DNA of 64,000 nucleotides, taken from Haliotis cracherodii. Lineage: Eukaryota. A model generated the notes under the pieces. It saw only the letters and a program-made list of their open reading frames with translations. It was not told the origin of the DNA and searched no databases. The position numbers and the translations under genes are program-made. Numbering within the stretch: the first letter of the stretch is position 1; every line of letters starts with the position of its first letter. Location of the stretch: the NCBI RefSeq assembly GCF_022045235.1, contig NW_027266319.1, forward strand, positions 26,226,001-26,290,000, written 5' to 3'. Below are positions 12,520 through 64,000 of this stretch, piece after piece.

Positions 12520-13720
12520 GAGTAATGTTTCCAGCGCCTAGTACCTGGTACCTAGCACAAGGCACCAAGGATCAAGTAGCTAGTACACAGCACAGGGCAC
12601 CAATGACCTAGAACTCAGCACAAGGCGCCAATTACGTAATACCTACAACCCAGAACAAGGAAACAATGGTACTTAGTACCTAGTATCCAGCACAAGGCAC
12701 CATGAACCCAATAGCTAGTACCCAGCACAAGGCACCATGAACCCAGTAGCTAGTACACAGCACAGGGCACCAATGACCTAGAACTCAGCACAAGGCGCCA
12801 ATTACCAAATACCTACAACACAGAACACGTAAACAAGGGCCTAGTACCTAGTATCCAGCACAAGGCACAATGAACCCAGTAGCTAGTACCAAGCACAAGG
12901 CAAAATGAACCCAATAGCTAGTACCCAGCACAAGGCACCATGAACCCAGTAGCTAGTACCAAACACAAGGCACAATGACCCAGTAGCTAGTACCAATCAC
13001 AAGGCACAGTGAACCAGTAGCTAGTACCCAACACTAGGCTCAATGACCCAATACCTAGTACCCAGCACAAGGCACAATGACCCAGTTCCTAATACCCAAC
13101 ACAAGACAACAATGACCCAGTACCTAGTACCCAACACAAGTCACAATGACCCAGTTCCTAATACCCAACACAAGACAACAATGACCCAGTACCTAGTACC
13201 AAGCACAAGGCACAATGACCCAGTTCCTAATACCCAACACAAGACAACAATGACCCAGTACCTAGTACCAAGCACAAGGCACAATGACCCAGTTCCTAAT
13301 ACCCAACACAAGACAACAATGACCCAGTACCTAGTACCAAGCACAAGGCACAATGACCCAGTTCCTAATACCCAACACAAGACAACAATGACCCAGTACC
13401 TAGTACCAAGCACAAGGCACAGTGACCCAGTTCCTAATACCCAACACAAGACAACAGTGACCCAGTACCTAGTACCAAGCACAAGGCACAATGACCCAGT
13501 AACTAGTACCCAGCACTAGGCACAATGACCCAATACCTAGTACCCAGCACAAGGCACAGTGACCCAGTAGCTAATACCCAGCACTAGGCACAATGACCCA
13601 GTAGCTAGTACCCAGCACTAGGCACAGTGACCCAATACCTAGTACCCAGCACAAGGCACAATGACCCAGTAGCCAGTACCCATCACAAGGCACAAGTACT
13701 AGTACCCAGTACCTACTACA
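12520..13720 (+). repeat. 34/35-bp minisatellite with a central 69-bp higher-order repeat
   Basis: Monomer is ~CAATGACCCAGTACCTAGTACCCAGCACAAGGCA. In ~13043-13500 two variants alternate strictly (34+35=69 bp), which produces the 23-aa repeat in the ORF track. The flanks are more diverged. Confidence 0.95.
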
Positions 13721-14420: not shown

Positions 14421-17400
14421 AGTCCTTCAGTACACCAGTGTCAGGTACCCAGTCCCTCAGTACACCAGTGTCAGGTACCCAGTCCCTCAGTGCATCAGTG
14501 TCAAGTACCCCAGTCCCTCAGTGCACCAGTGTCGGGTACCCCAGTCCCTCAGTGCACCAGTGTCAAGTACCTCAGTCCCTCAGTGCACCAGTGTCAGGTA
14601 CCTCAGTCCCTCAGTGCACCAGTGTCAAGTACCCCAGTCCCTCAGTGCACCAGTGTCAGGTACCCCAGTCCGTCAGTGCACCAGTGTCGGGTACCCCAGT
14701 CCGTCAGTGCACAGTGTCAAGTACCCCAGTCCGTCAGTGCACCAGTGTCAAGTACCCCAGTCCCTCAGTGCACCAGTGTCGGGTACCCCAGTCCCTCAGT
14801 GCACCAGTGTCAAGTACCCCAGTCCCTCAGTGCACCAGTGTCACGTACCCCAGTCCCTCAGTGCACCAGTGTCACGTACCCCAGTCCGTCAGTACACCAG
14901 TGTCAGGTACCCCAGTCCCTCAGTGCACCAGTGAGAGGTACCCCAGTCCCTCAGTGCACCAATGTAAGGTACCTCAGTACCTCAGTGCACCAGTGTCAGG
15001 TACCCAGTCCCTCAGTGCACCAGTGTCAGGTACCTCAGTCCCTCAGTGCACCAGTGTCAGGTACCCCAGTCCCTTAGTGCACCAGTGTCAGGTACCCCAG
15101 TCCCTCAGTACACCAGTGTCAGGTACCCCAGTCCCTCAGTGCATCAGTGTCAGGTACCCCAGTCCCTCAGTGCACCAGTGTCAGGTACCTCAGTCCCTCA
15201 GTGCACCAGTGTCAGGTACCCCAGTCCCTTAGTACACCAGTGTCAGGTACCCCAGTCCCTCAGTGCACCAGTGTCAGGTACCCCAGTCCGTCAGTGCACC
15301 AATGTCAGGTACCCCAGTCCCTCAGTGCACCAGTGTCAGGTACCCCAGTCCCTCAGTACACCAGTGTCAGGTACCCCAGTCCCTCAGTGCACCAGTGTCA
15401 GGTACCCCAGTCCGTCAGTGCACCAGTGTCAGGTACCCCAGTCCGTCAGTACACCAGTGTCAGGTACCTCAGTCCCTCAGTGCATCAGTGTCAGGTACCC
15501 CAGTCCCTCAGTGCACCAGTGTCAGGTACCTCAGTCCCTCAGTGCACCAGTGTCAGGTACCCCAGTCCCTCAGTGCATCAGTGTCAGGTACCCCAGTCCC
15601 TCAGTGCACCAATGTAAGGTACCTCAGTACCTCAGTGCACCAGTGTCAGGTACCCAGTCCCTCAGTGCACCAGTGTCAAGTACCCCAGTCCCTCAGTACA
15701 CCAGTGTCAGGTACCCAGTCCCTCAGTGCACCAGTGTCAGGTACCCAGTCCCTCAGTACACCAGTGTCAGGTACCTCAGTCCCTCAGTGCACCAGTGTCA
15801 GGTACCCCAGTCCTTTAGTGCACCAGTGTCAGGTACCCCAGTCCTTTAGTGCATCAGTGTCAGGTACCCCAGTCCGTCAGTGCACCAGTGTCGGGTACCC
15901 CAGTCCGTCAGTGCACCAGTGTCAGGTACCCCAGTCCGTCAGTGCACCAGTGTCAGGTACCCCAGTCCTTTAGTGCACCAGTGTCAGGTACCCCAGTCCC
16001 TCAGTGCACCAGTGTCGGGTACCCCAGTCCGTCAGTGCATCAGTGTCGGGTACCTCAGTCCCTCAGTGCACCAGTGTCAGGTACCCCAGTCCCTCAGTGC
16101 ACCAGTGTCGGGTACCCCAGTCCGTCAGTGCATCAGTGTCGGGTACCTCAGTCCCTCAGTGCACCAGTGTCGGGTACCCCAGTCCCTCAGTGCACCAGTG
16201 TCAGGTACCCCAGTCCCTCAGTGCACCAGTGTCGGGTACCCCAGTCCGTCAGTGCATCAGTGTCGGGTACCTCAGTCCCTCAGTGCACCAGTGTCAGGTA
16301 CCCCAGTCCCTCAGTGCACCAGTGTCGGGTACCCCAGTCCGTCAGTGCATCAGTGTCGGGTACCTCAGTCCCTCAGTGCACCAGTGTCGGGTACCCCAGT
16401 CCCTCAGTGCACCAGTGTCAGGTACCCCAGTCCCTCAGTGCACCAGTGTCGGGTACCCCAGTCCGTCAGTGCATCAGTGTCGGGTACCCCAGTCCGTCAG
16501 TGCATCAGTGTCAGGTACCCCAGTCCGTCAGTGCACCAGTGTCAGGTACCCCAGTCCTTTAGTGCACCAGTGTCAGGTACCCCAGTCCCTCAGTGCACCA
16601 GTGTCGGGTACCCCAGTCCGTCAGTGCATCAGTGTCGGGTACCTCAGTCCCTCAGTGCACCAGTGTCAGGTACCCCAGTCCCTCAGTGCACCAGTGTCGG
16701 GTACCCCAGTCCGTCAGTGCATCAGTGTCGGGTACCTCAGTCCCTCAGTGCACCAGTGTCGGGTACCCCAGTCCCTCAGTGCACCAGTGTCAGGTACCCC
16801 AGTCCCTCAGTGCACCAGTGTCGGGTACCCCAGTCCGTCAGTGCATCAGTGTCGGGTACCTCAGTCCCTCAGTGCACCAGTGTCAGGTACCCCAGTCCGT
16901 CAGTGCACCAGTGTCAGGTACCCCAGTCCTTTAGTGCACCAGTGTCAGGTACCCCAGTCCCTCAGTGCACCAGTGTCGGGTACCCCAGTCCGTCAGTGCA
17001 TCAGTGTCGGGTACCTCAGTCCCTCAGTGCACCAGTGTCAGGTACCCCAGTCCCTCAGTGCACCAGTGTCGGGTACCCCAGTCCGTCAGTGCATCAGTGT
17101 CGGGTACCTCAGTCCCTCAGTGCACCAGTGTCGGGTACCCCAGTCCGTCAGTGCACCAGTGTCGGGTACCCCAGTCCCTCAGTACACCAGTGTCACGTAC
17201 CCCAGTCCGTCAGTACACCAGTGTCAGGTACCCCAGTCCCTCAGTGCACCAGTGTCAGGTACCCCAGTCCCTCAGTGCATCAGTGTCACGTACCCCAGTC
17301 CCTCAGTACACCAGTGTCACGTACCCCAGTCCGTCAGTGCACCAGTGTCGGGTACCCCAGTCCGTCAGTGCACAGTGTCAAGTACCCCAGTCCGTCAGTG

Positions 17401-19870
17401 CACAGTGTCAAGTACCCCAGTCCGTCAGTGCATCAGTGTCAAGTACCCCAGTCCCTCAGTGCACAGTGTCAAGTACCCCAGTCCCTCAGTGCATCAGTGT
17501 CACGTACCCCAGTCCGTCAGTGCACCAGTGTCGGGTACCCCAGTCCCTCAGTGCATCAGTGTCAGGTACCTCAGTCCCTCAGTGCACCAGTGTCAGGTAC
17601 CTCAGTCCCTCAGTGCATCAGTGTCAGGTACCTCAGTCCCTCAGTGCATCAGTGTCAGGTACCTCAGTCCCTCAGTGCATCAGTGTCAGGTACCTCAGTC
17701 CCTCAGTGCATCAGTGTCAGGTACCCCAGTCCCTCAGTGCACCAGTGTCAAGTACCCCAGTCCCTCAGTGCACCAGTGTCAGGTACCCCAGTCCGTCAGT
17801 GCACCAGTGTCGGGTACCCCAGTCCCTCAGTGCATCAGTATCAGGTACCTCAGCCCCTCAGTGCACCAATGTAAGGTACCTCAGTCCCTCAGTGCACCAG
17901 TGTCAGGTACCCCAGTCCCTCAGTACACCAGTGTCAGGTACCCCAGTCCCTCAGTACACCAGTGTCAGGTACCCCAGTCCCTCAGTACACCAGTGTCAGG
18001 TACCTCAGTCCGTCAGTGCACCAGTGTCAGGTACCCCAGTCCCTCAGTACACCAGTGTCGGGTACCCCAGTCCCTCAGTACACCAGTGTCAGGTACCCCA
18101 GTCCCTCAGTACACCAGTGTCAGGTACCCCAGTCCCTCAGTACACCAGTGTCAGGTACCCAGTCCCTCAGTGCACCAGTGTCAGGTACCCAATCCCTCAG
18201 TACACCAGTGTCAGGTACCCCAGTCCCTCAGTACACCAGTGTCAGGTACCCCAGTCCCTCAGTACACCAGTGTCAGGTACCCCAGTCCCTCAGTGCACCA
18301 GTGTCGGGTACCCCAGTCCCTCAGTACACCAGTGTCACGTACCCCAGTCCCTCAGTACACCAGTGTCAGGTACCCCAGTCCCTCAGTGTCACCAGTGTCA
18401 GGTACCTCAGTCCCTCAGTACACCAGTGTCAGGTACCCCAGTCCCTCAGTACACCAGTGTCAGGTACCCAGTCCTTCAGTGCACCAGTGTCAGGTACCCA
18501 GTCCCTCAGTACACCAGTGTCAGGTACCCCAGTCCCTCAGTACACCAGTGTCAGGTACCCCAGTCCCTCAGTACACCAGTGTCAGGTACCCCAGTCCCTC
18601 AGTGCACCAGTGTCGGGTACCCCAGTCCCTCAGTACACCAGTGTCACGTACCCCAGTCCCTCAGTACACCAGTGTCAGGTACCCCAGTCCCTCAGTGTCA
18701 CCAGTGTCAGGTACCTCAGTCCCTCAGTACACCAGTGTCAGGTACCCCAGTCCCTCAGTGCACCAGTGTCAGGTACCCCAGTCCCTCAGTACACCAGTGT
18801 CAGGTACCCAGTCCCTTAGTGCACCAGTGTCAGGTACCCAGTCCCTCAGTGCACCAATGTCAGGTACCCCAGTCCCTCAGTACACCAGTGTCAGGTACCC
18901 CAGTCCCTCAGTGTCACCAGTGTCAGGTACCTCAGTCCCTTAGTGCACCAGTGTCAGGTACCCCAGTCCCTCAGTGCACCAGTGTCGGGTACCCCAGTCC
19001 CTCAGTACACCAGTGTCAGGTACCCAGTCCCTCAGTGCACCAATGTCGGGTACCCCAGTCCCTCAGTGCACCAGTGTCAGGTACCCCAGTCCCTCAGTGC
19101 ACCAGTGTCAGGTACCCCAGTCCGTCAGTGCACCAGTGTCAGGTACCTCAGTCCCTCAGTGCACCAATGTCAGGTACCCCAGTCCCTCAGTGCACCAGTG
19201 TCAGGTACCCCAGTCCCTCAGTGCACCAATGTCAGGTACCCCAGTCCCTCAGTACACCAGTGTCAGGTACCCCAGTCCCTCAGTGCACCAATGTCAGGTA
19301 CCCCAGTCCCTCAGTGCACCAGTGTCAGGTACCCCAGTCCGTCAGTGCACCAGTGTCAGGTACCTCAGTCCCTCAGTGCACCAGTGTCAGGTACCCCAGT
19401 CCGTCAGTGCACCAGTGTCAGGTACCTCAGTCCCTCAGTGCACCAGTGTCAGGTACCCCAGTCCCTCAGTGCACCAGTGTCAGGTACCTCAGTCCCTCAG
19501 TACACCAGTGTCAGGTACCTCAGTCCCTCAGTGCACCAATGTCGGGTACCCCAGTCCGTCAGTGCACCAGTGTCAGGTACCTCAGCCCCTCAGTGCACCA
19601 GTGTCAGGTACCTCAGCCCCTCAGTTCACCAGTGACAGGTACCCCAGTCCCTCAGTACACCAGTGTAAGGTACCCCAGTCCCTCAGTACACCAGTGTCAG
19701 GTACCCCAGTCCGTCAGTGCACCAGTGTCAGGTACCTCAGCCCCTCAGTGCACCAGTGTCAGGTACCTCAGCCCCTCAGTGCACCAGTGTAAGGTACCTC
19801 AGTCCCTCAGTGCACCAGTGTCAGGTACCCAGTCCCTCAGTGCACCAATGTCAGGTACCCCAGTCCCTCA
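14421..19870 (+). repeat. Satellite array 1: 31-bp monomer, ~175 copies; degenerate edge to ~20310
   Basis: Monomer CAGTCCCTCAGTGCACCAGTGTCAGGTACCC = 16-bp + 15-bp related half-units, with occasional 29-30-bp variants. Confidence 0.97.
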
Positions 19871-20309
19871 GTCCCACAATGGTGCGTTGGTGCCTTGGTG
19901 TCAAGTACATCAATGTGCAGACTCTATGTATCAGTTCCGGTTCCATGTACCCCTTCATCCATTTTCTCAGTGCAGAGTCCAGAGCCACAGTGTCAAATAC
20001 CAAAGCGTCCAGTCCTAAAGTGTCAATTGTCTTCAGTAGCCCTGTGTCCAGTAACCCAGCGTTCAGAACCACTGCGTCCAGTGTCTCATTTACAGGCACC
20101 CATGGGTTCAGTGCCTCAGTGTCACAATGTCAGTGTCTGTTCGCATACCGTGTCTAGCATCTCAGTGTCAGGTACTCATGGCCAGTGTCCATGCTCAATG
20201 TGCAGGACCTCGATACTTCAGTGACCATTGCTTCAGAATCCAGTGCCTCTGGAGATTGTACGCTGTGTGTCCAGTATCTCAGTGTCCGTGGTCGGTCTCC
20301 AGTAATCCG

Positions 20310-22542: not shown

Positions 22543-22699
22543 AGTGAGTGAGTGAGGTTTTACGCCGTTTTTAGCAGTATTCCAGCAATATTACGACGGG
22601 GGACACCAGAAATGGGCTTCACACATTGTACCCATGTCGGGAATCGAACTCGGGGCTTCGGCGTGACGAGCGAACGCTTTAATAACTAGGCTACCCGAC
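22543..22699 (-). mobile_element. tRNA-derived SINE with (CACT)n tail
   Basis: Reverse complement has an A box (TAGCCTAGTTA), a B box (GTTCGATTCCC) and the same body as 30230-30398. Confidence 0.85.
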
Positions 22700-23200: not shown

Positions 23201-23389
23201 TTGGTTTGGTTTGGTTTGGTTTGTTGTTTAACGCCGCACTGAACAATATTCCAGCTATATGACGGCGGTCTGTAAATTATCAAGTCTGGACCAGACAATC
23301 CAGTGAATGAGGTACTGACAATGCAGCAAGTGAAATCAACAATTAATGCTCTTTTTTCATGTTTAAGTATCATCATTAACACCTATTGA

Positions 23390-23882: not shown

Positions 23883-26330
23883 ACCTCAGTATCCTGTATC
23901 TCATTGTCCAATACGTCCAGCGTCTTAGTGTCCAGTATCTCAGTGTCCAGTGTCCAGTATCTCAGTGTCCAGTGTCCAGTATCTCAGTGTTTCAGTGTCT
24001 CAGTTACCAGGTGCTCAGTTTCCAGTTTCTCAGTGTCTGATATCCCAGTGTCCAGTATCTCAGTGTCCAGTATCTCAGTGCCCAGTACATCAGTGTCCAG
24101 TATCTCGGTGTCCAGTGTCCAGTATCTCAGTGTCCAGTACATCAGTGTCCAGTATCTCAGTGTCCAGTATCTTAGTGTCCAGTATCTCATTGTCCAGTAC
24201 ATGAGTGTCCAGTATCTCAGTGTCCAGTATCTCAGTGTCCAGTACATCAGTGTCCAGTATCTCAGTGTCCAGTACATCAGTGTCCAGTATCTCAGTGTCC
24301 AGTACATCAGTGTCCAGTATCTCAGTGTCCAGTATCTCAGTGTCCAGTGTCTCGGTGTCCAGTATCTCAGTGTACAGTATCTCGGTGTCCAGTGTCCAGT
24401 ATCTCAGTGTCCAGTACATCAGTGTCCAGTACATCAGTGTCCAGTATCTTAGTGTCCAGTATCTCGGTGTCCAGTGTCCAGTGTCTCAGTGTCCAGTACA
24501 TCAGTGTCCAGTATCTTAGTGTCCAGTATCTCATTGTCCAGTACATCAGTGTCCAGTATCTCAGTGTCCAGTATCTCAGTGTCCAGTACATCAGTGTCCA
24601 GTATCTCAGTGTCCAGTACATCAGTGTCCAGTATCTCAGTGTCCAGTATCTCAGTGTCCAGTGTCCAGTATCTCAGTGTCCAGTATCCAGTATCTCAGTG
24701 TCCAGTATCTCAGTGTCCAGTACATCAGTGTCCAGTATCTCAGTGTCCAGTATCTTAGTGTCCAGTATCTCATTGTCCAGTACATCAGTGTCCAGTATCT
24801 CAGTTTCCAGTATCTCAGTGTCCAGTACATCAGTGTCCAGTATCTCAGTGTCCAGTACATCAGTGTCCAGTATCTCAGTGTCCAGTATCTCAGTGTCCAG
24901 TGTCCAGTATCTCAGTGTCCAGTATCTCAGTGTCCAGTACATCAGTGTCCAGTATCTCAGTGTCCAGTACATCAGTGTACAGTATCTCAGTGTCCAGTAT
25001 CTCAGTGTCCAGTACATCAGTGTCCAGTATCTCAGTGTCCAGTGTCCAGTATCTCAGTGTCCAGTACATCAGTGTCCAGTAACTCAGTGTCCAGTACATC
25101 AGTGTCCAGTACATCAGTGTCCAGTACATCAGTGTCCAGGTGCTCAGTTTCCAGTTTCTCAGTGTCCGGTATCTCAGTGTCCAGTATCTCAGTGTCCAGT
25201 ATCTCAGTGTCCAGTACATCAGTGTCCAGTATCTCAGTGTCCAGTGTCCATTATCTCAGTGTCCAGTATCTCAGTGTCCAGTACATCAGAGTCCAGTATC
25301 TCAGTGTCCAGTACATCAGTGTACAGTATCTCAGTGTCCAGTATCTCAGTGTCCAGTACATCAGTGTCCAGTATCTCAGTGTCTAGTACATCAGTGTCCA
25401 GTATCTCAGTGTCCAGTATCTCAGTGTCCAGTACATCAGTGTCCAGTATCTCAGTGTCTAGTACATCAGTGTCCAGTATCTCAGTGTCCAGTATCTCAGT
25501 GTCCAGTGTCCAGTATCTCAGTGTCCAGTATCTCAGTGTCCAGTACATCAGTGTCCAGTATCTCAGTGTCCAGTATCTTAGTGTCCAGTATCTCATTGTC
25601 CAGTACATCAGTGTCCAGTATCTCAGTGTCCAGTATCTCAGTGTCCAGTACATCAGTGTCCAGTATCTCAGTGTCCAGTGCATCAGTGTCCAGTACATCA
25701 GTGTACAGTACATCAGTGTCCAGTATCTCAGTGTCCAGTACATCAGTGTCCAGTGCATCAGTGTCCAGTACATCAGTGTACAGTATCTCAGTGTCCAGTA
25801 TCTCATTGTCCAGTACATCAGTGTCCAGTATCTCAGTGTCCAGTGTCCAGTATCTCAGTGTCCAGTACATCAGTGTCCAGTACATCAGTGTCCAGTACAT
25901 CAGTGCCCAGTACATCAGTGTCCAGGTGCTCAGTTTCCAGTTTCTCAGTGTCCGGTATCTCAGTGTCCAGTGTCCATTATCTCAGTGTCCATTATCTCAG
26001 TGTCCAGTATCTCAGTGTCCAGTACATCAGTGTCCAGTACATCAGTGTCCAGTTCATCAGTGTCCAGTACATCAGTGTCCAGGTGCTCAGTTTCCAGTTT
26101 CTTAGTGTCCGGTATCTCAGTGTCCAGTATCTCAGCGTTTCAGGGTCTCCGTTTCCAGTTTCTCATTGTCCGGGTACCCAGTGTCCATCCAGTACCCCAT
26201 TGTCAGATATCGCACTGTCCAGTGCCTCTGTGTCCACTGCATCTTTGTCCAGTATCTGTGTTCCGATCATCCAGTACTATGATTCTCGTATCACTGTGCC
26301 TAGCACCGCAGTTTCAGATACCACAATATA
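23883..26330 (+). repeat. Satellite array 2: 15-bp monomer CAGTGTCCAGTATCT/CAGTGTCCAGTACAT with interspersed 7-bp CAGTGTC slips
   Basis: Homogeneous core ~23930-26135 with degenerate edges. Confidence 0.97.
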
Positions 26331-27788: not shown

Positions 27789-28855
27789 GGTGTCCTCCCA
27801 TTAGTTAGACAGCCATTTGTTAGACACCTTAAAATAACAACTTTTCTGGTTGAGTGCACAACAAAGTGCAATGCTGTTACCTTGATTGATAATGGAATGA
27901 CCCATAGCTAAACATCAAGATATAACAAAACAAAAAGACATGTTAAGTCAGGTGTACTTATTTATAAACGTTCATAAAATCAACATTAACAAGATCAACA
28001 TCTGAGAGATTCCCGGGAAGAGCAGGCATGGTGTTGCGGCACTGTCTGTAAAGGGCACCGCTGACGCTGGAGAAGGAAGGCATCGTTGTCATCTTCTTGT
28101 GCTAGCTGGTCATTGTAGAGGGAGTGCATCTTGGTTGTTTCTTCACGGGCGCCCTTTCGAAGTGTGCTGAGGAACTTGAGAGTTTGTTGACAGGTTCTGG
28201 TGGATGGTTGTGCTCAGTCTGGTTCCGGAGGAAGTCGTCACTTGTTGTGCATCTACCAGTGCAGGTCTTGATAACACACCTCCAGTGGGTGCTGGTCTGT
28301 CTTTCTCGATTTCGGTTGTAGAGATATCCATCCAGACGAATCTGAGGTGTGCCTCTCTGTGACATAATATATTCCACTTTCCTTAACCCAGCCATTCTGA
28401 TAATGCTACCATGATCTGCCAGTAATGATATTTATATCACAGTTGGTTAAACTGAGTAGACACTGACAAATTGATAGTTAAAGATTAACTGTTTTATATT
28501 AAGAATGTTATTATAACAAGCATCTAAGGGCAAGTGTAACTTGAGTAGTAGTCTAGTTGAGAAGATCCTCATTTTCCACAAGTTTTAAAGATTAAACACT
28601 ACATATTGGATTAACATAATAACTTATAATCAGAGTACAACATGCAACTGGAGTAGCAGTCTAGTAAATAACTATATCAATAAATAAGTAGAAAATAAGT
28701 AGAGAAAGATCAAACAATGAACTTTGAGACATGCCTAATTAGTTCACTGAGTAGGACTGTACCATTGTTGTGGGTACTGCCCTAATTAATCCCCTACTTC
28801 AGTGTCTGACAACTGGCTGTCTAACAACTGGCTGTCTAACTAAAGGGAGATAACC
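27789..28855 (-). mobile_element. Non-autonomous Mutator-like (MULE) DNA transposon, 1067 bp, inserted in a SINE-like repeat
   Basis: Imperfect TIRs: GGTGTCCTCCCATTAGTTAGACAGCCATTTGTTAGACA versus GGTTATCTCCCTTTAGTTAGACAGCCAGTTGTTAGACA (reverse complement of the right end). Perfect 8-bp TSD ATGACACC (27781-27788; 28856-28863). Contains a FLYWCH ORF. Confidence 0.85.
28102..28395 (-). pseudogene. FLYWCH zinc-finger N-terminus of a truncated MULE transposase
   Basis: SQRG..QIRLDGYLY...HWRC...CTGRCTT...HNHPP matches the FLYWCH pattern. Frameshifted continuations (LRKRAREETT, PSFSSVSGALYRQCRNTMPALP) resemble the MULE linker. There is no DDE domain. Confidence 0.8.
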
Positions 28856-30229: not shown

Positions 30230-30398
30230 GTGGTGGTCGGGTAGCCTAGTGGTTAAAGCGTTCGCTCGTCACGCCGAGACCCGGGTTCGATTTCCGACAT
30301 GGGAACACTGTGTGAAGTCCATTTCTGCTGTCCCCCATCGTGATATTGCTGGAATATTGCTAAAAGCGGCGTAAAACCATAACCACTCACTCACTCAC
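30230..30398 (+). mobile_element. Full-length tRNA-derived SINE with 12-bp TSD
   Basis: A box TAGCCTAGTGG, B box GGTTCGATTTC, (CACT)n tail, and perfect TSD TCCAGATACAGA (30218-30229; 30399-30410). Confidence 0.92.
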
Positions 30399-37273: not shown

Positions 37274-40200
37274 CAGTACCCTTTATCCAGTACCTCAGTG
37301 TTCCGTACCTCGGTGTCCAGTACCTCGGTGTTCAGTACTAAGTATCCAGTACCTCAGTGTCCAGTACTAAGTATCAAGTACCCAGTGTCCACTCCCTATG
37401 TGTCCACTACAAAGAATCCAGTACCTCAGTGTCCAGTACTTAGTGTCCAGTACATCAGTGTCAAGTACCTCAGTGCCCAGTACATCAGTGTCCAGTACTA
37501 AGTATCAAGTACCCCAGTGTCCACTCCCTATGTGTCCACTACAAAGAATCCAGTACCTCAGTGTCCAGTACTTAGTGTCCAGTACATCAGTGTCCAGTAC
37601 TAAGAATCCAGTACCCCAGTGTCCAGTACTAAGAATCCAATACCCCAGTGTCTAGTACTAAGTACCCAATACCTCACTGTCCAGTACTAAGTATCCAGTA
37701 CCCCAGTGTCTAGTACTAAGAATCCAGTACCCCATTGTCCAGTACTAAGTCTCCAGTACCTCAGTGTCCAGTATCTCAATGTCCAGTACCTCAGTGTCCA
37801 GTACCTAGTGTCCAGTACCTCAGTGCCCAGTATCTCAGAGTCCAGTATCGCAATGTCCAGTATCACAGTGTCCAGTATTTTTGTACCCAGTACCTCAGCG
37901 ACCAGTACCACTGTGTTCAGTACCCCTGTGTCCAGTATCTCGATGTCCAGTACCTCAGTGTCCAGTACCCAGTGTCCAGTACCTCAGTGCCCAGTATCTC
38001 AGAGTCCAGTATCGCAATGTCAAGTATCACAGTGTCCAGCACCTAGTGTCCAGTACTTCAGTGCCCAGTATCACAGTGTCCAGTATTTTTGTACCCACTA
38101 CCTCAGTGACCAGTACCACTGTGTCCAGTATCTCATCGTCTAGTATTTCAGTATCCAGTATCTCAGTGTTCTTATTTCCAGGACCTCAATATCAGGTACC
38201 CCTGTGCTCAGTACCTCAATGTCCAGTACCTCAGTGTCAGGTACCTCAGTGTCCAGTACCTCAGTGTCAGGTACCTCAGTGTCCAGTACCTCAGTGTCAG
38301 GTACCTCAATGTCCAGTACCTCAGTGTCAGGTACCTTAGTGTCAGGTACCTCAGTGTCCAGTACCTCAGTGTCAGGTACCTCGGTGTCCAGTACCTCAGT
38401 GTCAGGTACCCCTGTGCTCAGTACCTCAATGTCCAGTACCTCAGTGTCAGGTACCTTAGTGTCAGGTACCTCAGTGTCCAGTACCTCAGTGTCAGGTACC
38501 TCAATGTCCAGTACCTCAGTGTCAAGTATCTTAGTGTCAGGTACCTCAGTGTCCAGTACCTCAGTGTCAGGTACCTCGGTGTCCAGTACCTCAGTGTCCA
38601 GTACCTCAGTGTCAGGTACCTCAGTGTCCAGAACCTCGGTGTCCAGTACCTCAGTGTCAGGTACCTCAATGTCCAGTACCTCAGTGTCAGGTACCTCAGT
38701 GTCAGGTACCTCAGTGTCAGATACCTCAGTGTCAAGTACCTCGGTGTCCAGTACCTCCGTGTCAGGTACCTCAATGTCCAGTACCTCAGTGTCAGGTACC
38801 GCAGTGTCAAGTACCTTAGTGTCAGGTACCTCAGTGTCAAGTACCTCGGTGTCCAGTACCTCAGTGTCAGGTACCTCAGTGTCCAGTACCTCAGTGTCAG
38901 GTACCTTAATGCCCAGTACCTCAGTGGCAGGTACCTCAGTGTCAGGTACCTCAGTGTCCAGTACCTCAGTGTCAGGTACCTCAGTGTCAAGTACCTCAGT
39001 GTCAGATACCTCAGTGTCAAGTACCTCGGTGTCCAGTACCTCCGTGTCAGGTACCTCAATGTCCAGTACCTCAGTGTCAGGTACCGCAGTGTCAGGTACC
39101 TCAGTGTCAGATACCTCAGTGTCAAGTACCTCGGTGTCCAGTACCTCCGTGTCAGGTACCTCAATGTCCAGTACCTCAGTGTCAGGTACCGCAGTGTCAA
39201 GTACCATAGTGTCAGGTACCTCAGTGTCAGGTACCTCATTGTCAGGTACCTCAGTGTCAAGTATCTTAGTGTCAGGTACCTCAGTGTCAAGTACCTCAGT
39301 GTCAAGTACCTTAGTGTAAGGTACCTCAGTGTCAGGTACCTCAGTGTCAAGTACCTCAGTGTCAGGTACTGCAGTGTCAAGTACCTCAGTGTCAGGTACC
39401 TCAGTGTCAGGTACCTCAGTGTCAAGTACCTTAGTGTCAGGTACCTCAGTGTCAGGTACCTCAGTGTCAAGTACCTCAGTGTCAGGTACTGCAGTGTCAA
39501 GTACCTCAGTGTCAGGTACCTCAGTGTCAAGTACTTTAGTGTCAGGTACCTCAGTGTCAGGTACCTCAGTGTCAGGTACCTCAGTGTCAGGTACCTCAGT
39601 GTAAGGTACCTCAGTGTCATGTACCTCAGTGTCAAGTACCTTAGTGTCAGGTACCTCAGTGTCAAGTACCTCAGTGTCAAGTACCTTAGTGTCAAGTACC
39701 TCGGTATCCAGTACCTCCGTGTCAGGTACCTCAATGTCCAGTACCTCAGTGTCAGGTACCGCAGTGTCAAGTACCTTAGTGTCAGGTACCTCAGTGTCAG
39801 GAACCTCAGTGTCAAGTACCTTAGTGTCAGGTACCTCATTGTCAGGTACCTCAGTGTCAAGTACCTTAGTGTCAGGTACCTCAGTGTCAAGTACCTCAGT
39901 GTCAAGTACCTTAGTGTCAAGTACCTCGGTGTCCAGTACCTCCGTGTCAGGTACCTCAATGTCCAGTACCTCAGTGTCAGGTACCGCAGTGTCAAGTACC
40001 TTAGTGTCAGGTACCTCAGTGTCAGGAACCTCAGTGTCAAGTACCTTAGTGTCAGGTACTTCATTGTCAGGTACCTCAGTGTCAAGTACCTTAGTGTCAG
40101 GTACCTCAGTGTCAAGTACCTCAGTGTCAAGTACCTTAGTGTCAGGTACCTCAGTGTCAGGTACCTCAGTGTCAAGTACCTCAGTGTCAGTTACTGCAGT

Positions 40201-53825: not shown

Positions 53826-55394
53826 TTCCGGTATTGCCAGTATACTAGATTTCCCTCATAGCGAAAGCATCCACTTCGCAAAGGATATCCCGCAAGGATA
53901 AAGGAATAATCAGGAATAATTAGGTTAAACTGGTATGGAATTTCATGTTAAACCTTTATGCGGCGGTACTTATTTGACACAGCATTGTTATTGCTGCCTT
54001 CATATCTGATTAGATTGCAAATAAATGCTTATTTCGACAATTATTATACTTTCCAACTATAATCAATAATAGGCATGAGTGGAGCTTTATTACCACCCAG
54101 ATAAATGTCTTTTCGGATCGGATTAATCTCAACGATTCAACCAATATCAATACTTTCGAAATGTGACAAATAGACCAATCCATCATGAATATTAGACGTC
54201 GTTGAAAAATAAATCATGTATTACCATAATAAATCTATTTTTTCTGAGTTATTCCGTTGCCTATCAGAGAATTGTTACCAGAGAATAATCTAGATCACTT
54301 GAGTTGCATTTATCATGGGAAATTTGCCAAACATTTTCAGAAGCGAAATGTTCTCACTTGCTTCATGCAATTAGAATAAAAACGGTTTGACGTCTTACTC
54401 GCGGCTGTGCATAACCGTTTCATTTCGTTCGGGATTTGACAAGATTTTTTTTTTATGAACTCAGCATTATTTTTGCAGCGTACATAAAACTAAAACTTTG
54501 AAATGCCAAACAATCACCTTCGAGGTGAAACTTGAGAGCTTTCAATGAACAGTTCAACACTTATTTAATAAGGAACGTAGGTTATCAGTCAAACTAAAGT
54601 CCACAATCAAAATAACTTCAAATGCCCTTCGTTATAATCTGAACTCATTTAATGAAATAACACGATCACTGTGTATGTGTATGTGTACACCAAAACCTTG
54701 TGTCGTTGTTGGGACACAAAATTGCTGTTTCAACGTTATCGACAAATGTAAAGAAGCCCTTAAAATGGAACTAGACTCCTATGCCCGTGCCCAGTGTAGG
54801 TCTAGAATTGTAATTACTACGTTGTGTCAAACTGAGGCATTTCCTTTGCATAATAAGTGTAATTATACAAAAACAATATATTGTGAGGTAGATATGCGTA
54901 AAAGTCGCTCTTAAAGAATCCATACAAAATTAAGCCTGCTACCTGACCAGGTCATGGGCCGGGAACGCAACATTTAAGTATCAGATAGTCCCGGGAAAGC
55001 CGAACTCGTAATTGCTTTTCACTGTCCACGCTGATGTTGCTGAACGCGACGTAAAATCATATTAATCACAGATAAAGGTTACTTGTAAAGTTCATACAAT
55101 CCTAAGTATTGAATCCTAGAAGGGACATTGTCGCGTTATCGCATTGTCCTTACAAAAACAACGAAAACGTGTCAAAATTGACCAAAACGCGACAAATGCG
55201 ATGAAGCGACAGTTTGGCCATTTGTCGTATTGTCGAGCTTTTATTTTTTTATTTAACAAAGGTCGACAAGGTCAAAATATATCGCCATACTTAGGATTCC
55301 ATACTTATATAACAAACTACCATAACCTTATCGGTAATGATACCAAATACATATATTCAGATTTTCTTCATATCGTGGTAATAGAACACATTGC

Positions 55395-55500
55395 TGAACA
55401 CCGGTGGGGCAGGATACGATCACCTTTTCGCGGTATCATAACCTGGTATCATCACTATTTGATAGTGAGTCATAAACTGATGTTCATGATATAGTAGGAA
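55395..55500 (+). repeat. Dispersed repeat also at ~7155-7255 and ~10395-10495
   Basis: Shared CACCGGTGGGGCAGGATACG...ACCTTTTC...ACCTGGTATCA...CTATTTGA.AGTGA. Confidence 0.65.
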
Positions 55501-58500
55501 TCGTACAGTCGACTCTGTTTTGGCAGAGATATTCTATTTTCTCATTACTATTTTGTCAACGATAACTGCTGTGTTGCAAGATATTAAAAAACGGTAATGG
55601 GGAAGAACATTGTCAATTGTTTTATGTACAAAACTATAACGACCCAATAACCGCAGATGGTGCGAGGCCAGATGTTTCGATCCTGCTCAAAACGGCACGT
55701 ACGACAGTTGATAAGAAATATTGTGCGAATGTCCCTCTTAAAGTGTACAATAAACGATTGTCTTGTTGAGCAATTTACAGCTAAAACGATCCGAACGTTT
55801 TTATTTCTTGGGAGACAATAATCTTGCTATTTTCTGAGAAAGTAATTTTCAAGATTTTCTTTGAAAAAAGGACATACGCTATGTCTGAGCGCCGGGACCA
55901 GATGCCATCGGCGGAAACAAGAAGTGATAGTCATATAGCTGAAATTGGTATCAGCGTTAATTCACTACTCACAAGCCTTACCATAGCGCGCAAAATCCTC
56001 GTCATACAATATGTTGGCTGACGTTTCCTTAAATTAACTTCCGTCGAATCTCACAGAAGCCGCACTGACGATGCTTGGTCCAAGGACTCCCTCCATTGGA
56101 TACCCCTTTTCCAACCATGAAGGTCCCGCACTGACTACCGACCCTCCAACCAAGGAGCCCTTTTATCAAAGCCCGTCGTATGCAACAGACGCCGGACTGT
56201 AGATAAAAGAACAGCATTGGCTCTAACACGAACCACAATTTTCAAAACTTGAACCAAGGATTCCATTTGCCTGTATTTGCCGTACTGCCGATCCACGTGC
56301 GGCTTTCACGTTATGAGAAGAAACTCTCAAATCTCGACCCCATTGACCACCCATTGCCAAACCTCGCAGAGGTGGTTCTGTCAATCCAAAACTTTCATCC
56401 TCGACCCCCTTTGGTGACCATTAAGCTGTTTCTCTCATGTCAGTAACGGCCAAGTCATCACCATTCCTGGATAGGAGCGAAGCTTGGGGTTGATAAAAGT
56501 TAAAACCATTTCTGTTGATAGTCGGTTTGTTTTTCTCTGTCGGGGATGAGCTAATCAATGGGCCCAACCATCTCTGACTGCGCACAAGGCTTTTATTCGG
56601 TTCCCTATATGGTGCAGTTTGTTAAACCTATGCCAATCCAAACCCAAATGCAAGAATTGAAAAAGCCACCCTACTCACGCAGCTTCACACAATTTAACTC
56701 ACTCACTCACTTATTCGTTAACTCATCACCGATAATAAAATGGTAATTTCGCGGTCAATGAGTGAGTGACTGTGCTCAGTGAGTGAGTGAGTGAGTGGAT
56801 AGTGGGGTATTCGAGTGAGTGAGTGAGGCATCACGGTATGTCAGCTCAGTGGGGGACCACGTTGGTATTGTGTATGCCCTAGACGTTCACCACTCGAAAT
56901 CCACGAGCGCGAGTCAAACAAAGAGTCACATAAAGGCGAATCTGGATTTCCAACCCTCGACCATCGGATTCTGTCATAATAAAGGGACTCAACTCAGAAC
57001 AACGATCATATTAGTGTAGTTAAAATGTTCGAATTTAAATTCGAATATGGTATTAGGTTTATGCATTCATGCTCACATGGACTGTGGCAGTGACGAAAAA
57101 TATACCTCTGTAACTACTACTCATAACTACCGATTAAATTCTTCTCTGAGTGTTTGGTTGCATTGGACCAAGTAGTTGTAACCAGCAAGGTTCATTTCTC
57201 AGTAAATATACGGTGTACGGTATATGATACATCACGATGGCATCTCCTATTATTCTTTTCAAAGCAACTGATTGATTTTGTTCTTTTCATACTCTCGACA
57301 AACCTACATTGTTTTCCCAAAACGACTTGCAGTGTCCATTATATAGTGTGATGTGTCGCTGTGAGGCAAATACCATTCCTAGGTCTCATGTGGAACAATA
57401 TTGCTCTACATTGTTCATATTACCATGGCAACCACGTTGTTCACGTGCTACTTGAAAGATGCCCACGTCAGCCATTTCGAATGCTGGCCATTTATATTTT
57501 CATATTTCCAGCTTGAACTTGAACCATTATTTTCACTAACCGAATTCGTTTTGGAATGGCATTGTCCCAGCGGCCTTTGTCCACGTGAATGTTCCTCAGA
57601 TACGCCCTGACATAACTGCAACATTATTAAAGCAGCGTTAAGCCAAACTCACTCACTCACTCGCTCACTCACTCACTCTATCACTTGTCCGTTTTTGGTC
57701 AATGATACACCAACCCTGAGTGGCTTCATTAGGGATCAAACCGAGAACTTCTGCGTGATGAACGAACGCTTTAGCCACTAGGCTCATCAAACGCTAATGC
57801 AGCGGTTAAGTTGCAAAATTATTTTCATTCCTTTCTGTGTGCCTGTATTTATAGTTGGTAAAGATGCAAGTATGAATTATCTGCACGTATATCCATACAT
57901 AAGAGTAAAGCAACTTGCAAATCGGATGGTCGAAGGTTTGCGTTCAAAGGTGTTATTCATTTTTTTTTTTTTTGTGAAACTCACGTTAATACCTGGCAAG
58001 ATACTTGTAACAGAATGGAGTTGTACAAAAATAAAATTATTACTGTTGATATTAACAAAGAAAAAGAAAAAAACACCTTTAAAAATTGTATTGTCCATTC
58101 CACCCCTATTTCTTAAAATCACTCTCCATCTTCAAGTATCCTTTGACGTTTAAACTTGAAACACTATGTATAAACGCAGGCGATCAAGTCTACAACACTC
58201 TGTACATTCAGAAACAACAAAGAGACACGAATGGTGTTATCCAACCTTTTCGCGTTTGTAAATGCCAGAAGCCAAAACTATGAAAACTGTCGCTCGTCAA
58301 GCCAAGGACCCGGGTTCAAATCCCCACATGGCTATAATGTTTAAGGCTTTCTTGGGTATCACCTGGTGTGAAATAGCTGGCAAATAATGCTGAATGTGGA
58401 GTGACATTCAAAGCACACCCCTACACCCTTCGTTTTTACCAACGATCCAATTACTGACAGCTCTTACACTTTATCACTACGGTATCGAGTTGTAACATAG

Positions 58501-60068
58501 GGGATGAAGTTTATGGAAAACGCTTGGCTAAGATTCTAAATCTCGGGAAAAATTGTACACTTAGGTGCATGGATTTGACTTAAAGGATGCTGGGAAGCAA
58601 TCAAGGGGAATTCCTGTGCACTGCTGACTTTCACTTCCGGACAGTACTAGTGTTTGCCGTGTTTCAGAAGCACTTCCACGAAACAGATAATTAGGACCCG
58701 GATTTGAGCAGCAGTTTCCAACACTTTTTAAAAAGGTTAATCCGGTGTTTTTTTCAGAAATTTCAAATCTTAAAGGTTTAAATCCCCGCAAGAAATACGT
58801 GACTTCTTTAAGTGCATCCTTAATATCACTACAAAAAGTAACATAGAATCAACTACCTTTTCAAACTTGTTTGCTTTAGGGATATTTCTTCTGAGCAATG
58901 CTTAGAGTATTGATGGGAACTCGATAATGACGTTACACTTTAAGGCTGTGCTGCTGTCATGATGAATACAGAGACAGATTATACAACCTGATAGAGTAGG
59001 ATAGGCATCAATGTATACATGTTATATTATGAGACGTCAAGTATAAGCTCTTTCCGTTTTAGATATTGATGATGGGACCATCCCTACCCCTTATAATTAT
59101 CACGACTGTACCTAAACAGGTATTGGAAACGGCTTTCTATTTCAATCTCAGTTAGCGCGATGTAAAAAATCAATTAGACATTCAATGTTATAACGCTGAC
59201 CAGTGTCACAGGCATGACACGCCGCATTATAACTGGAATACTGTTAAAAGCGGCGTTAAAACCAACTCACTCACAGGCATGGACTTTTTCTGTGTTGTCA
59301 TTGCTACAGCGCCAGCATGTTGGTCATGTTACTGCAGACTCCAAGGTGCATGAATCAATAGACATGCATGACATATATTGTGACTGATCTTCAAAATATT
59401 TAACAAGCATTTAACAAACGTGTTTTTAAACCTTTGGACGTCCACGTGTTTCAGTTTCTCCAATGACACCTTGATGAACATACTTCGTTCTATGAATCTG
59501 TCAGAATGGTGAAAGAAGTCAACGTGCTGCGAATGTTCTAACAAAACTCAGCATGGTGAAACCATTGAATGTCAATGCTAGGTTTACCGTAGGGTGTTCT
59601 CATTTAGTATGGTGACTTGTAATTCACCTGGATGGCATTGCCATTAAAGAATGATATATCATATATTAGAATTAATTCCTTTTCGTATTGATGTGCACAA
59701 TGTATTCATGTCGTATTTCGTTTCTGACGGATACAGTAAGGACACATTTGCTTGCTGTAATATCACTTATGGATCTCAAGCGAGGAAGGTCTAGTGTATG
59801 CACAAGGAGTGTGATTTATAAACCAGTTGCGATTTGGTATTGTCGCAAAAGTGTGAACAAGCGTGAATGACAAATGGACCCGTTTTTACCAACTGTGTTG
59901 AAGAGGAAACAGATGTTATGCATGCACTGTTTTGCCAAACAAATATTTTTTATAAGATTGTGCTTTAAAACAATCTAAAACGTACGTTTACGAACATACT
60001 GACCAAGCTTATAGGATCACGTGACTGCCAACACGAGTAATTTCCATAGAGGTATCATAAAAATAGAA

Positions 60069-60074
60069 TTTATT
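60069..60074 (-). terminator. Candidate polyadenylation signal AATAAA of the neuropeptide gene
   Basis: Minus-strand AATAAA ~500 bp downstream of the stop codon. Confidence 0.5.
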
Positions 60075-60569
60075 AAATATCAGCAAAGATTCGTTTAATA
60101 TTGCATTAAAACAGTCAAGAAAGTATAGAGTCAGTCAGACAACGAATTACTCATACACTATTACGTTATTCTGTTAATAGTATCTGATGTAACATAATCA
60201 TATAGCTTACAATAAATGTTCTCTTATTGATATGCTTACTTTTATACATATTCGCTATACATAAATGACATGTCAATTGAGAATCCAAAGTTTACGAAGT
60301 TGATAGATTGCAACGCTCACATCACACAAGCACACAGTACCTCAGTGAAATAGAACTGTTCACATAGATCCTCAATAGTCAATAATCATCTCTATAGAAA
60401 GTAAACATTCCTAGCAGGTTGGGAATTGTATTTGCTTATAGTTATCCATCGGGACCACCCTTGGCTCCTTTCTTTCAACAGTCTGTTTGTCATGGCCGTT
60501 TACCTTGAACCCCTCACGTCACCAGTAGTCTCTCGTCCAGTCCGCCTTTTACAGGCTCTGGCTAGGCGC

Positions 60570-61502
60570 CTAGCCTATGAATTCACGTACGCGTTTGTTG
60601 TAGCCGTTGTCGATGCTGTCGTCAAAGCTGAGAAGGCTTCGTTTCCCTATGAACTCACGCACCCTCTTCCTGACGTCTCGTTTCCTCTTTGCAGCCGCTG
60701 GGGAAGGCATCACCGAACGTTTACCGAAGAACTCCCGAAGGCGTTTCTGTTCCTCTATTACGTTCCGTTTGCCAAAGAATTCTCGTAGTCGTTTCTCTTC
60801 CATGGGCCCATCTCGTTTCCCGAAAAACTCTCTGAGGCGCTTGTCATCCACGTGCCCGTCCCGTTTGCCAAAGAACTCTCGGAGCCGTTTCTGTTCCTCT
60901 GGGCCATTGCGTTTACCAAAGAATTCACGAAGACGTTTTTCTTCTACTGGTTGGTCGGACCTTTTGCCAAAGAACTCTCTCAAACGTTTGTCAGCTTCGA
61001 GTCCATCTCGTTTGCCGAAGAATTCCCGTAATCGTTTGTCCGCTGTTACGTCACTCCTTTTGCCAAAGAATTCACGAAGACGCTTGTCGGCACTCAGATC
61101 GCTCCTTTTGCCAAAGAATTCTCTCAGTCTCTTATCAGCACTTAGATCGCCACTCCGTTTCCCAAAGAATTCCCTTAGCCTTTTATCAGCACTGGGATCG
61201 CTTCGCTTACCAAAGAATTCACGAAGTCTCTTGTCCGGATTATCACTTCGTTTTCCAAAGAATTCCCTTAAACGTTTGTCCTCCCTTTTACCAAAGAAAT
61301 CCCTGACTCGCTTGTCGTATGTTCCATAGTCCTGGCCAAAACCTTCAGCAGAGTCCGCTGAACTTAAATCTCTCTTACCAAAGAACTCCCTGAGTCGTTT
61401 ATCGGGTGTGGCCCCCACGTCCCTACGATCCCGGTCTGCCTGTCCCCCGGACACGACAAGTAGGGTTAGTCCGGCCACTAGAAGTTGATGCAAGGGCGGC
61501 AT
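60570..61502 (-). CDS. Neuropeptide precursor, PRQFVamide/LRNFVamide-family pentapeptides (13x LREFFamide, 1x VRDFFamide, 2x VREFIamide), 310 aa, single coding exon
   Basis: Hydrophobic N-terminal signal peptide (MPPLHQLLVAGLTLLVVSGGQA) followed by an RDRR site. Repeated KR-xR(E/D)F(F/I)-G-KR cassettes have mostly acidic spacers. The last peptide ends Gly-stop. The peptide repeats differ at synonymous positions. Confidence 0.95.
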   Translation of the reverse strand: MPPLHQLLVAGLTLLVVSGGQADRDRRDVGATPDKRLREFFGKRDLSSADSAEGFGQDYGTYDKRVRDFFGKREDKRLREFFGKRSDNPDKRLREFFGKRSDPSADKRLREFFGKRSGDLSADKRLREFFGKRSDLSADKRLREFFGKRSDVTADKRLREFFGKRDGLEADKRLREFFGKRSDQPVEEKRLREFFGKRNGPEEQKRLREFFGKRDGHVDDKRLREFFGKRDGPMEEKRLREFFGKRNVIEEQKRLREFFGKRSVMPSPAAAKRKRDVRKRVREFIGKRSLLSFDDSIDNGYNKRVREFIG

Positions 61503-61524
61503 GCTGGCTCACCGCGCGGGACAC

Positions 61525-61565
61525 AAAATGAGGATACTAGTGAACGCGCGCGCGCCTTTTAAAGC
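61525..61565 (-). promoter_or_regulatory. Candidate core promoter of the neuropeptide gene
   Basis: Minus-strand TTTAAAA (61563-61557), a (GC)n tract, then Inr-like TCATTT with A at 61529, ~27 nt upstream of the ATG. Confidence 0.45.
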
Positions 61566-64000
61566 CAGCTCGTGTACTCTCCGCGCCAGCCCTCCCTCGC
61601 AGCCAAACAGCGGCTGCTAACGCATCTTCATTATAATCATTTAACAATTTGCCGATTTAGGCTCAAATTTATGTGTATGATTAATTTAGCTCTATTAGCG
61701 CGACAGAAGGCTGGATACAGAAATCAATGAACAATCAGTCGTCAGAGAGTGTCATAGCAAAAGCATTGCGACAGACGGAGCAGGGGTGGTTCAATAAGAG
61801 ACTACATTTCTTCTCGGAGGATCAATAGTAAACTTTGTTGTATACGCGAAAGACGGTCCAACCCACGCATCCGCCAACAAGAGGTGTGGCTTGTTGAGTG
61901 ACAGGACGGAGGGGGCGGGATAGTGACTGGCACGAGGGGTGGCTGTTAATAGTGCTTATCTTAGGCCAGCGATCACTTCAACGTGATTCTACTTATTAAG
62001 CGCAGGTTTGTGATCAGCAGAGACGTCTCGGAAAGTCTCCGAACCTCCCGTCTCCTCATAATGAAGCTACTGTCGTTACAGTTTATTTAGTGAAATTGAC
62101 TTTCGAAACCTTGGTCTCAATGTGATTAAAATCTAGGATCTTAAGGCAATTCTTTCTTTTAGGAAATATTTGTTTTAGGTTGTGAAAAATCAATGTTGGT
62201 TCTGGCTATTTGTGCTATGCTGTATGTTTAATGTGTCTATTTAACCCGACACCGAAAACACAGTGAGTTCTATTTGGAATATCAAGTCAAGATGCCCTGA
62301 AGCACAAAGCCCATGGTGATCTGTAAGTTTAGCAACCAGAATCTACGCATGGTTAGGTTAAAATAAGTAATACACTGACGTTTTTATATATCAAATATGC
62401 ACAAAGGTTCGAAAGATACCTCTGAGTGGTTGTTGTTAATTATATCCTTAAATTATTATTCACAGATGAAATTTCCGAAATTTGGATGCTAATTGGCATC
62501 CGAAATATATTTTTTCATCAAAAAACAATATAAATAGCCAGTGTTACATACTACTTAAATTACTTTATATCGCTACTTTGTTCTGATCCGTATTGGAAAT
62601 TTATTTCCATCTAAACCTCGCGCGGACACATTCCCAACGAGACTTATCCTGATGGCCTTTTTATTACAACACAATTATCTCGATTGTCATGTAAAACAAT
62701 AATGTAAACTGTCATCATTTAATGCGTTCCATTAATAATTTTTCAAATATTCTTTTCATCATGACAAGGATATTTATTTTTGAAAATGTGTAATATCAAA
62801 TCCAACCACCTTAACTGTAGTCACCATGTCTCCGAAACCAATAGCTGTAACAAAACACTGCTTTATAACTATAAATGACAATCTCCTTGAACGCAGAGAC
62901 CTTAAACAGATTACAGCGATCAAGGAGAAAGCAAAGTTAATTATTTCCATTTTCATAAGAAGTGCATCAATGTCAGAACGTGACAAGGAACATGGATGAA
63001 ACATATTTTATGATACAAAGGCTTGTGCTATCGATAAACCAATCCGATAACCTGGGTATCATGATCCGATAAATATGCAAAAGGGGAATATACTTTCAAG
63101 CTCCATGTATCAATACGATGCCTTCTTTCTCAATACATTATTGATTAACTATATGCTTAGTTAGTTCCCAATATGCTAATATAAGGCTTTTTATACGTGT
63201 CGCCGAAACATTGCGACAGACATGGTTGCAAGTCATCTGGCACATCACGATAAATTGAGCGGTTCACTCGAAAAATGTATTCATATGCGATTTCTAACGC
63301 TTTTTGATTGAGATGAAATTACGATTTGAACATCCATTATTTTATGACATTATTTGATGATGAGATTATTACCCTCGTGTGTTTTCGTATCGTAAATATC
63401 ATATATTAGAAATTAATTTACCCAGGCTACCACAAGACGGGCAACGGCACATGGTTACAACTGGCGAACCTTTTTAATACCTCGTGTCCAATGAAGTAAC
63501 TTATTTGAGACTGACTTGTTGAAGAATTCCAATCAGCTGTGTCATATTGCAGCTTATTTCAACATTACACGTCAGGAAATTTCCATTCCGTTATGATTGG
63601 TTAAATGAATTTTGAAATATTACCACTCAATTTTCTGCGCAGTACATGACCTCCTCTTTATATTTGAGACAAAGAATTTTAAAGTCTTTCAAAACGATAA
63701 CGAAATACACGACATTCATATTTTCATTGAAATTACTTTTGTAATGCCAAATCTTTTCTTTCGCAAATATACATCGTAACCTGATATAAGGAGAATGTTA
63801 GATGGGATAAATCGGTTATTGGTACTGGTACCAACGGTTGGATGATAAGAATAAAATCCTACCCTCAAATATGATCAATTCACTCCAGACTTACAGTGCT
63901 AAAGTGACGGAGGGAAAGTAACTGTTTCATTCAACCCTGCAATCGATGGGTGTGTCCGTCGCTCACCATGGTAACTGCACCCTCGCGGGACAGATATAAG

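Follow-up and report, generated by a model that had tools for sequence, protein, structure and literature searches.

Which neuropeptide gene lies at positions 60570-61502 of this Haliotis cracherodii DNA, and does the Phe-Phe ending of most of its predicted peptides set it apart from the PRQFVamide/LRNFVamide family? The open reading frame stands on the minus strand of a 64,000-nucleotide stretch, referred to here as the window. The evidence strongly favors the view that this is the abalone PRQFVamide/LRNFVamide gene and that it encodes a likely secreted precursor, predicted to yield 13 copies of LREFFamide, one of VRDFFamide, and two of VREFIamide, which likely serve as neuromodulators as their counterparts do in Aplysia.

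The precursor

The frame comprises 310 codons and translates into a leader followed by 16 Gly-extended pentapeptides: 13 LREFF-G, one VRDFF-G, and two VREFI-G. KR pairs lie on either side of 15 of these, while the final VREFIG runs straight into the stop codon. The initial annotation, which described 16 dibasic-flanked, Gly-extended pentapeptides, had the counts right and erred only in the last copy, which ends at the stop and not at KR. Its signal peptide is supported by hydropathy, with a hydrophobic core at residues 7-17 whose Kyte-Doolittle mean reaches 2.74 over a 9-residue window. The spacers of the LREFF array are about 40% Asp/Glu, and the repeat period is about 48-51 bases. Pfam returns only sub-threshold noise for the precursor. 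The positions of the individual elements are collected in Table 1.

Table 1. Positions of the precursor gene, its parts, and other elements of the window
Feature	Position	Strand	Basis
Coding sequence of the 310-aa PRQFVamide/LRNFVamide-family prepropeptide, without introns	60570..61502	-	ORF; 308/310 match; joint-free contigs
Predicted signal peptide, about residues 1-22	61437..61502	-	Hydropathy
Furin-type RDRR site preceding Asp, ahead of first peptide	61422..61433	-	R-x-[KR]-R-[DES] pattern
LREFF-Gly, copy 1	61377..61394	-	ORF translation
VRDFF-Gly, sole copy	61290..61307	-	ORF translation
Array of 12 more KR-LREFF-G-KR copies with short acidic spacers	60723..61271	-	Translation; period analysis
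VREFI-Gly, copy 1, usual aliphatic ending	60645..60662	-	Translation; copy and flanks also in P0001
VREFI-Gly, copy 2, abutting stop codon	60573..60590	-	ORF translation
Probable 3′ untranslated region	60055..60569	-	Poly(A)-type signals; contig ends
Upstream region, 5′ leader and/or promoter	61503..61840	-	Covered by same contigs
LINE-type retroelement remnant, zf-RVT domain	2931-3764	+	Pfam PF13966, E 8e-8
FLYWCH zinc-finger domain	28105-28431	-	Pfam PF04500, E 1e-11
Minisatellite, 34-base unit	12776-13713
Minisatellite, 31-base unit	14421-19872
Minisatellite, 15-base unit	23915-26187
Minisatellite, 15-base unit	37286-41859
Related copies of the 59215-59274 repeat	663-721, 851-890, 22544-22598, 23227-23267, 30349-30394, 42874-42929, 47254-47294, 51276-51336, 57612-57656

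Contig coverage and flanking signals

Window DNA is matched in sequencing runs under five species labels from seven studies. Contigs of four runs from four studies (X12, X14, X15, and X16), which are only guessed to be RNA, none of the matching runs listed being recorded as such, were mapped on positions 54001-64000. Neither the missing coverage of the flanking bins nor the differences in depth between runs enter the argument. A single contig without a joint spans 60055-61821 in X14 and 60078-61755 in X15; X12 covers 60073-61402 with zero differing letters, and X16 covers 59919-61840 in three pieces.

On the minus strand, the 3′ region holds the signals ATTAAA (60094-60099) and AATAAA (60069-60074). 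Contigs of three runs end at or just past the latter (60073, 60055, and 60078), and a piece of the fourth extends to 59919, which together give a weak hint of a poly(A) site near AATAAA. Upstream of the coding sequence, a TATA-like TTTAAAA (61557-61563) and initiator-like words at 61543 and 61531 mark candidate transcription starts, yet the contigs extend to 61755-61840. Three in-frame ATGs at 61617-61640 (minus strand) form a 7-codon upstream ORF, which would sit in the 5′ leader if transcription began where the contigs reach furthest upstream and not at the TATA-like word.

A published abalone precursor

In Supplementary File 2 of PMC6523705 (Kim et al. 2019), the entry “FVamide (3) LRNFVamide” is a full-length precursor of Haliotis discus hannai whose sequence was deduced from ganglion transcripts. 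It is 310 residues long and, compared by eye, equals the window protein at 308 of 310 positions; the leader, the 16 peptides and their order, and the Gly-stop end are all the same. The two differences fall in spacers, where D166 and N199 of the window protein are N and S, respectively, in H. discus hannai. Going by this near-identity, both the precursor sequence and the family label are already in print for the farmed abalone, and the gene is not new. The novelty that the initial annotation had thought possible, provided no identical precursor had been described, is thereby lost.

The main text of that paper has no matches for REFF, LRNFV, PRQFV, or FFamide and leaves the peptide and its Phe ending unmentioned, which is why the gene looked unreported. 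A main-text literature search with LREFF and its amide spellings gave no neuropeptide paper among the matches listed, none of the LRNFV papers found concerns abalone judging by title, and no paper was found that remarks on a Phe ending of family peptides. In the parts of the De Oliveira 2019 supplements examined, a REFFG precursor was not found. The exact window protein is absent from a collection of 15 billion proteins, and two protein searches returned no near-identical abalone protein, so the sampling of both searches is incomplete.

Ganglion expression is thus documented for the H. discus hannai precursor by the transcriptome from which it was deduced. In the same study, a Table S2 entry named “PRQFVa” (TBIU013932, 388 bases) has FPKM values of 1656-2458 across six ganglion samples, not differential with maturation, and may represent the window gene. 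Mass spectrometry in that work detected 119 peptides, and its Table 3 of differential peptides lists none of the LREFF type.

Family membership

The orthology with PRQFVamide/LRNFVamide precursors proposed in the initial annotation holds up in the protein search that it had called for: the best sequence matches are PRQFVamide-family members, and the published label agrees. A word-index search gave 18 matches among 8000 candidates scored. Four of the 18 are informatively named, and all four are PRQFVamide precursors (from Deroceras, Mercenaria, and Patella); a Bulinus match filed as hypothetical has eight PRQFV copies. A full HMMER scan gave 131 matches at E values up to 0.001.

The window precursor shares its general plan with Aplysia PRQFVamide (Swiss-Prot Q86MA7), its Deroceras, Mercenaria, and Patella orthologues, and Lottia LRNFVamide. 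All have a leader and a furin-type site, followed by many KR-flanked x-R-[E/D/Q/N]-F-hydrophobic-Gly units set in acidic spacers. Of 43 family precursors, 28 have the R-x-[KR]-R-[DES] pattern ahead of their first peptide, that of the window (RDRRD at residue 24) included. The core x-R-[E/D]-F-hydrophobic-Gly is present in 16/16 window peptides, with F as the hydrophobic residue in 14 and I in two, and LREFV, VRDFV, and VREFV, each one residue off a window peptide, occur in other family members. The Aplysia precursor itself lists VRDFV-, VREFV-, IREFV-, and AREFV-amide. In contrast to Aplysia-type members, the window precursor is shorter, lacks PRQFV, and has Phe in place of Val, Ile, or Leu at the end of 14 of its 16 copies.

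The initial annotation took the known members to end in Val-amide, a premise that proves too narrow. Of 142 relatives collected, 42 (near-duplicates among them) have at least two x-R-[EDQN]-[FL]-x-Gly peptides, and the last residue of their 397 peptides is V in 290, I in 65, L in 29, F in 12, and Q in one. Val is the usual ending without being invariant: 4 of the 42 lack any Val-ending copy, and 31 of 43 precursors, the window's counted, mix endings. Phe endings are confined to two of the 43, namely the window precursor and the ENA protein P0001, from which all 12 other F endings come. P0001 carries 12 LREFF and two VREFI peptides, is 61% identical to the window protein by BLASTP, and has the same C-terminal layout with a different leader. 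On this comparison, the Phe ending appears common to more than close relatives.

Past its last VREFIG, after residue 331, P0001 has a tail that looks like gene-caller read-through, possibly into an intron; the window protein stops exactly where this tail begins. Among the bivalve precursors compared (P0068, P0070, P0078, P0086, and others), those labeled “LRNFVamide” carry xRYF[L/V] peptides while others carry xR[ED]F[V/I/L], and the label may span two different genes.

It is improbable that the window gene is a lineage-specific PRQFVamide paralogue and that a typical Val-amide copy lies at another locus. Theba, which in the query file of PMC6523705 has LRNFVamide-1 to -3, demonstrates that one gastropod can possess several such precursors. 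Against a paralogue in abalone, the sole LRNFVamide entry in the accessible published list, which stands beside enterin and MIP, is this very precursor, and the window protein keeps the family leader site as well as two Ile-ending copies. No host neighbor gene is recognizable in the 64-kb window.

Selection on the repeat and the Phe ending

The units are far denser than base composition yields: in 2000 base shuffles of the ORF, at most two dibasic-5mer-Gly-dibasic/stop units appear in any frame compared to 16 in the real sequence. The 14 FF units agree at every second codon position, while their third positions approach saturation (0.71 for Gly and 0.66-0.75 for Arg). This combination marks the LREFF repeat as an old coding sequence maintained by selection and sets it apart from DNA satellites such as those elsewhere in the window. 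Runs X14-X16 together have 16 coding differences, of which 12 are silent and four are replacements, all within spacers; none of the six differences that fall within KR-peptide-G-KR units changes an amino acid.

The terminal Phe codon has the same first base in 14/14 copies. Under a crude star model, which ignores gene conversion and codon bias, this constancy has a probability of 4e-6 at the observed divergence and of 0.005-0.02 at lower values. Because Phe is kept in every one of these copies despite near-saturated silent sites, in a family in which most precursors mix endings, the receptor of this lineage probably prefers the Phe ending.

Most likely, a single unit acquired the Phe ending in one event, and internal tandem duplication in steps of 16 codons would then have carried it along the array, while the two Ile copies at the C-terminus kept their original form. 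The 48-51-base period and the location of both Ile copies at the C-terminus suggest such internal amplification of a single Phe unit.

Processing and function

Standard neuropeptide processing comprises secretion, dibasic cleavage, carboxypeptidase trimming, and PAM amidation at Gly. The H. discus hannai precursor, which is 99% identical, is transcribed in ganglia. Following that route, the window protein would enter the secretory pathway, be cleaved by prohormone convertases at KR, be trimmed by carboxypeptidases, and be amidated by PAM; the final VREFI copy, which ends in Gly-stop, would need no trimming. The predicted MH+ values of the products are 710.398 for LREFF-NH2, 682.367 for VRDFF-NH2, and 662.398 for VREFI-NH2.

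In Aplysia, PRQFVamide is reported to inhibit gut contraction and to modulate buccal feeding neurons (PMC5736919, citing Furukawa 2003). By analogy with this distant gastropod, the window peptides would likely have a gut and buccal function, inhibiting gut contraction and tuning buccal feeding neurons through a GPCR. The family receptor of the lineage itself would accept the Phe-ending peptides. The receptor step is a proposal, as Thiel 2021 reported receptors for F[V/L/I]amide peptides from annelids and brachiopods alone; that study also warns that such peptides may be phylogenetically different. A literature search on PRQFV and receptors listed no deorphanization study judging by title.

Other receptors and a switched signaling system

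The constancy of Phe in a family with mixed endings could also be read as a sign that the new ending redirected the peptides to an FFamide/SIFamide receptor or to a TRH-type (fulicin/EFLGamide) receptor, with a function unlike that of PRQFVamide. Such redirection is improbable; a co-adapted receptor of the family's own explains the conservation equally well.

With molluscan FFamide/SIFamide-like precursors, the window precursor shares only the C-terminal Phe-Phe-amide. The former, grouped with SIFamide in PMC6425005 and PMC5996578, are short, carry two longer GxNPNMNSLFF-type peptides, and in abalone are encoded by a separate gene, as far as the published list consulted goes. The FFamide mimicry raised for the window peptides is therefore a weak likeness, apparently limited to two residues. 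Membership in that family is rejected, given that the ORF contains no GxNPNMNSLFF-type peptide and that abalone has its own FFamide precursor.

The TRH-type core E-[L/F]-[L/F/V], as in nematode (G/A)(R/N)ELFamide (PMC8398477), comes near R-E-F-F-amide, but ordinary LREFV members of the PRQFVamide family match it just as well, so that what is shared is a loose E-F-hydrophobic core. According to the same source, molluscs have fulicin, (F/Y)S(E/D)FL, as their TRH-type peptide, which in oyster is an alternative splice product of the MIP gene; the N-terminal (F/Y)S of fulicin contrasts with x-R in the window peptides, and, unlike MIP/fulicin, the window gene has no splice joint in the contigs. Fulicin/EFLGamide membership is likewise rejected, since the ORF holds no (F/Y)S(E/D)FL-type peptide and the contigs show no joint. 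A search for a TRH-type/EFLG exon added by alternative splicing found neither a joint nor a convincing peptide exon downstream; when the rest of the window was scanned in six frames for [EDQ]F[LIVFM]G[KR*], a single match turned up, isolated and outside any precursor context.

A broader possibility is that abalone, together with at least one lineage farther removed, exchanged Val-amide for Phe-amide throughout the PRQFVamide system under selection, with the receptor of that system changed or swapped. We regard this as doubtful. If true, it could entail cross-talk with a SIFamide/FFamide or TRH-type receptor, the two Ile-amide copies would retain the old signal so that one precursor carries two messages, and the FF/FI pair would constitute a natural probe for the molluscan F[V/L/I]amide receptor. 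Under the preferred reading, that of the abalone family gene acting through its own receptor, the remaining interest is modest and lies in a structure-activity question, namely the effect of a Phe-Phe compared to a Phe-Val ending. A precursor with Phe- and Ile-ending versions offers a ready ligand pair for a receptor screen and for abalone feeding or gut-motility assays.

There is next to no chance that the ORF is a dead copy or a chance reading of a DNA tandem repeat: although a satellite-rich window does yield long meaningless ORFs, this is ruled out by the codon-position pattern (units without second-position differences), by species differences that are mostly silent, by the published ganglion transcript, and by the distant homologue.

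Other elements in the window

A short dispersed repeat at 59215-59274, probably the terminal part of a SINE-like element, attracts a very large number of contigs from each of the four runs and has nine further matches in the window at E below 0.001. Rfam and ARAGORN searches over the window found nothing, including no Rfam or tRNA match for this repeat. The four minisatellites have similar AGTACC-containing cores and long open frames without evident meaning. Two stretches 3267 bases apart, at about 5640-6306 and 8907-9573, yield ORFs of equal length with identical translated context, as would follow from a duplication in the recent past or from an error of assembly. The FLYWCH domain likely derives from a Mutator-like transposon or an isolated exon.
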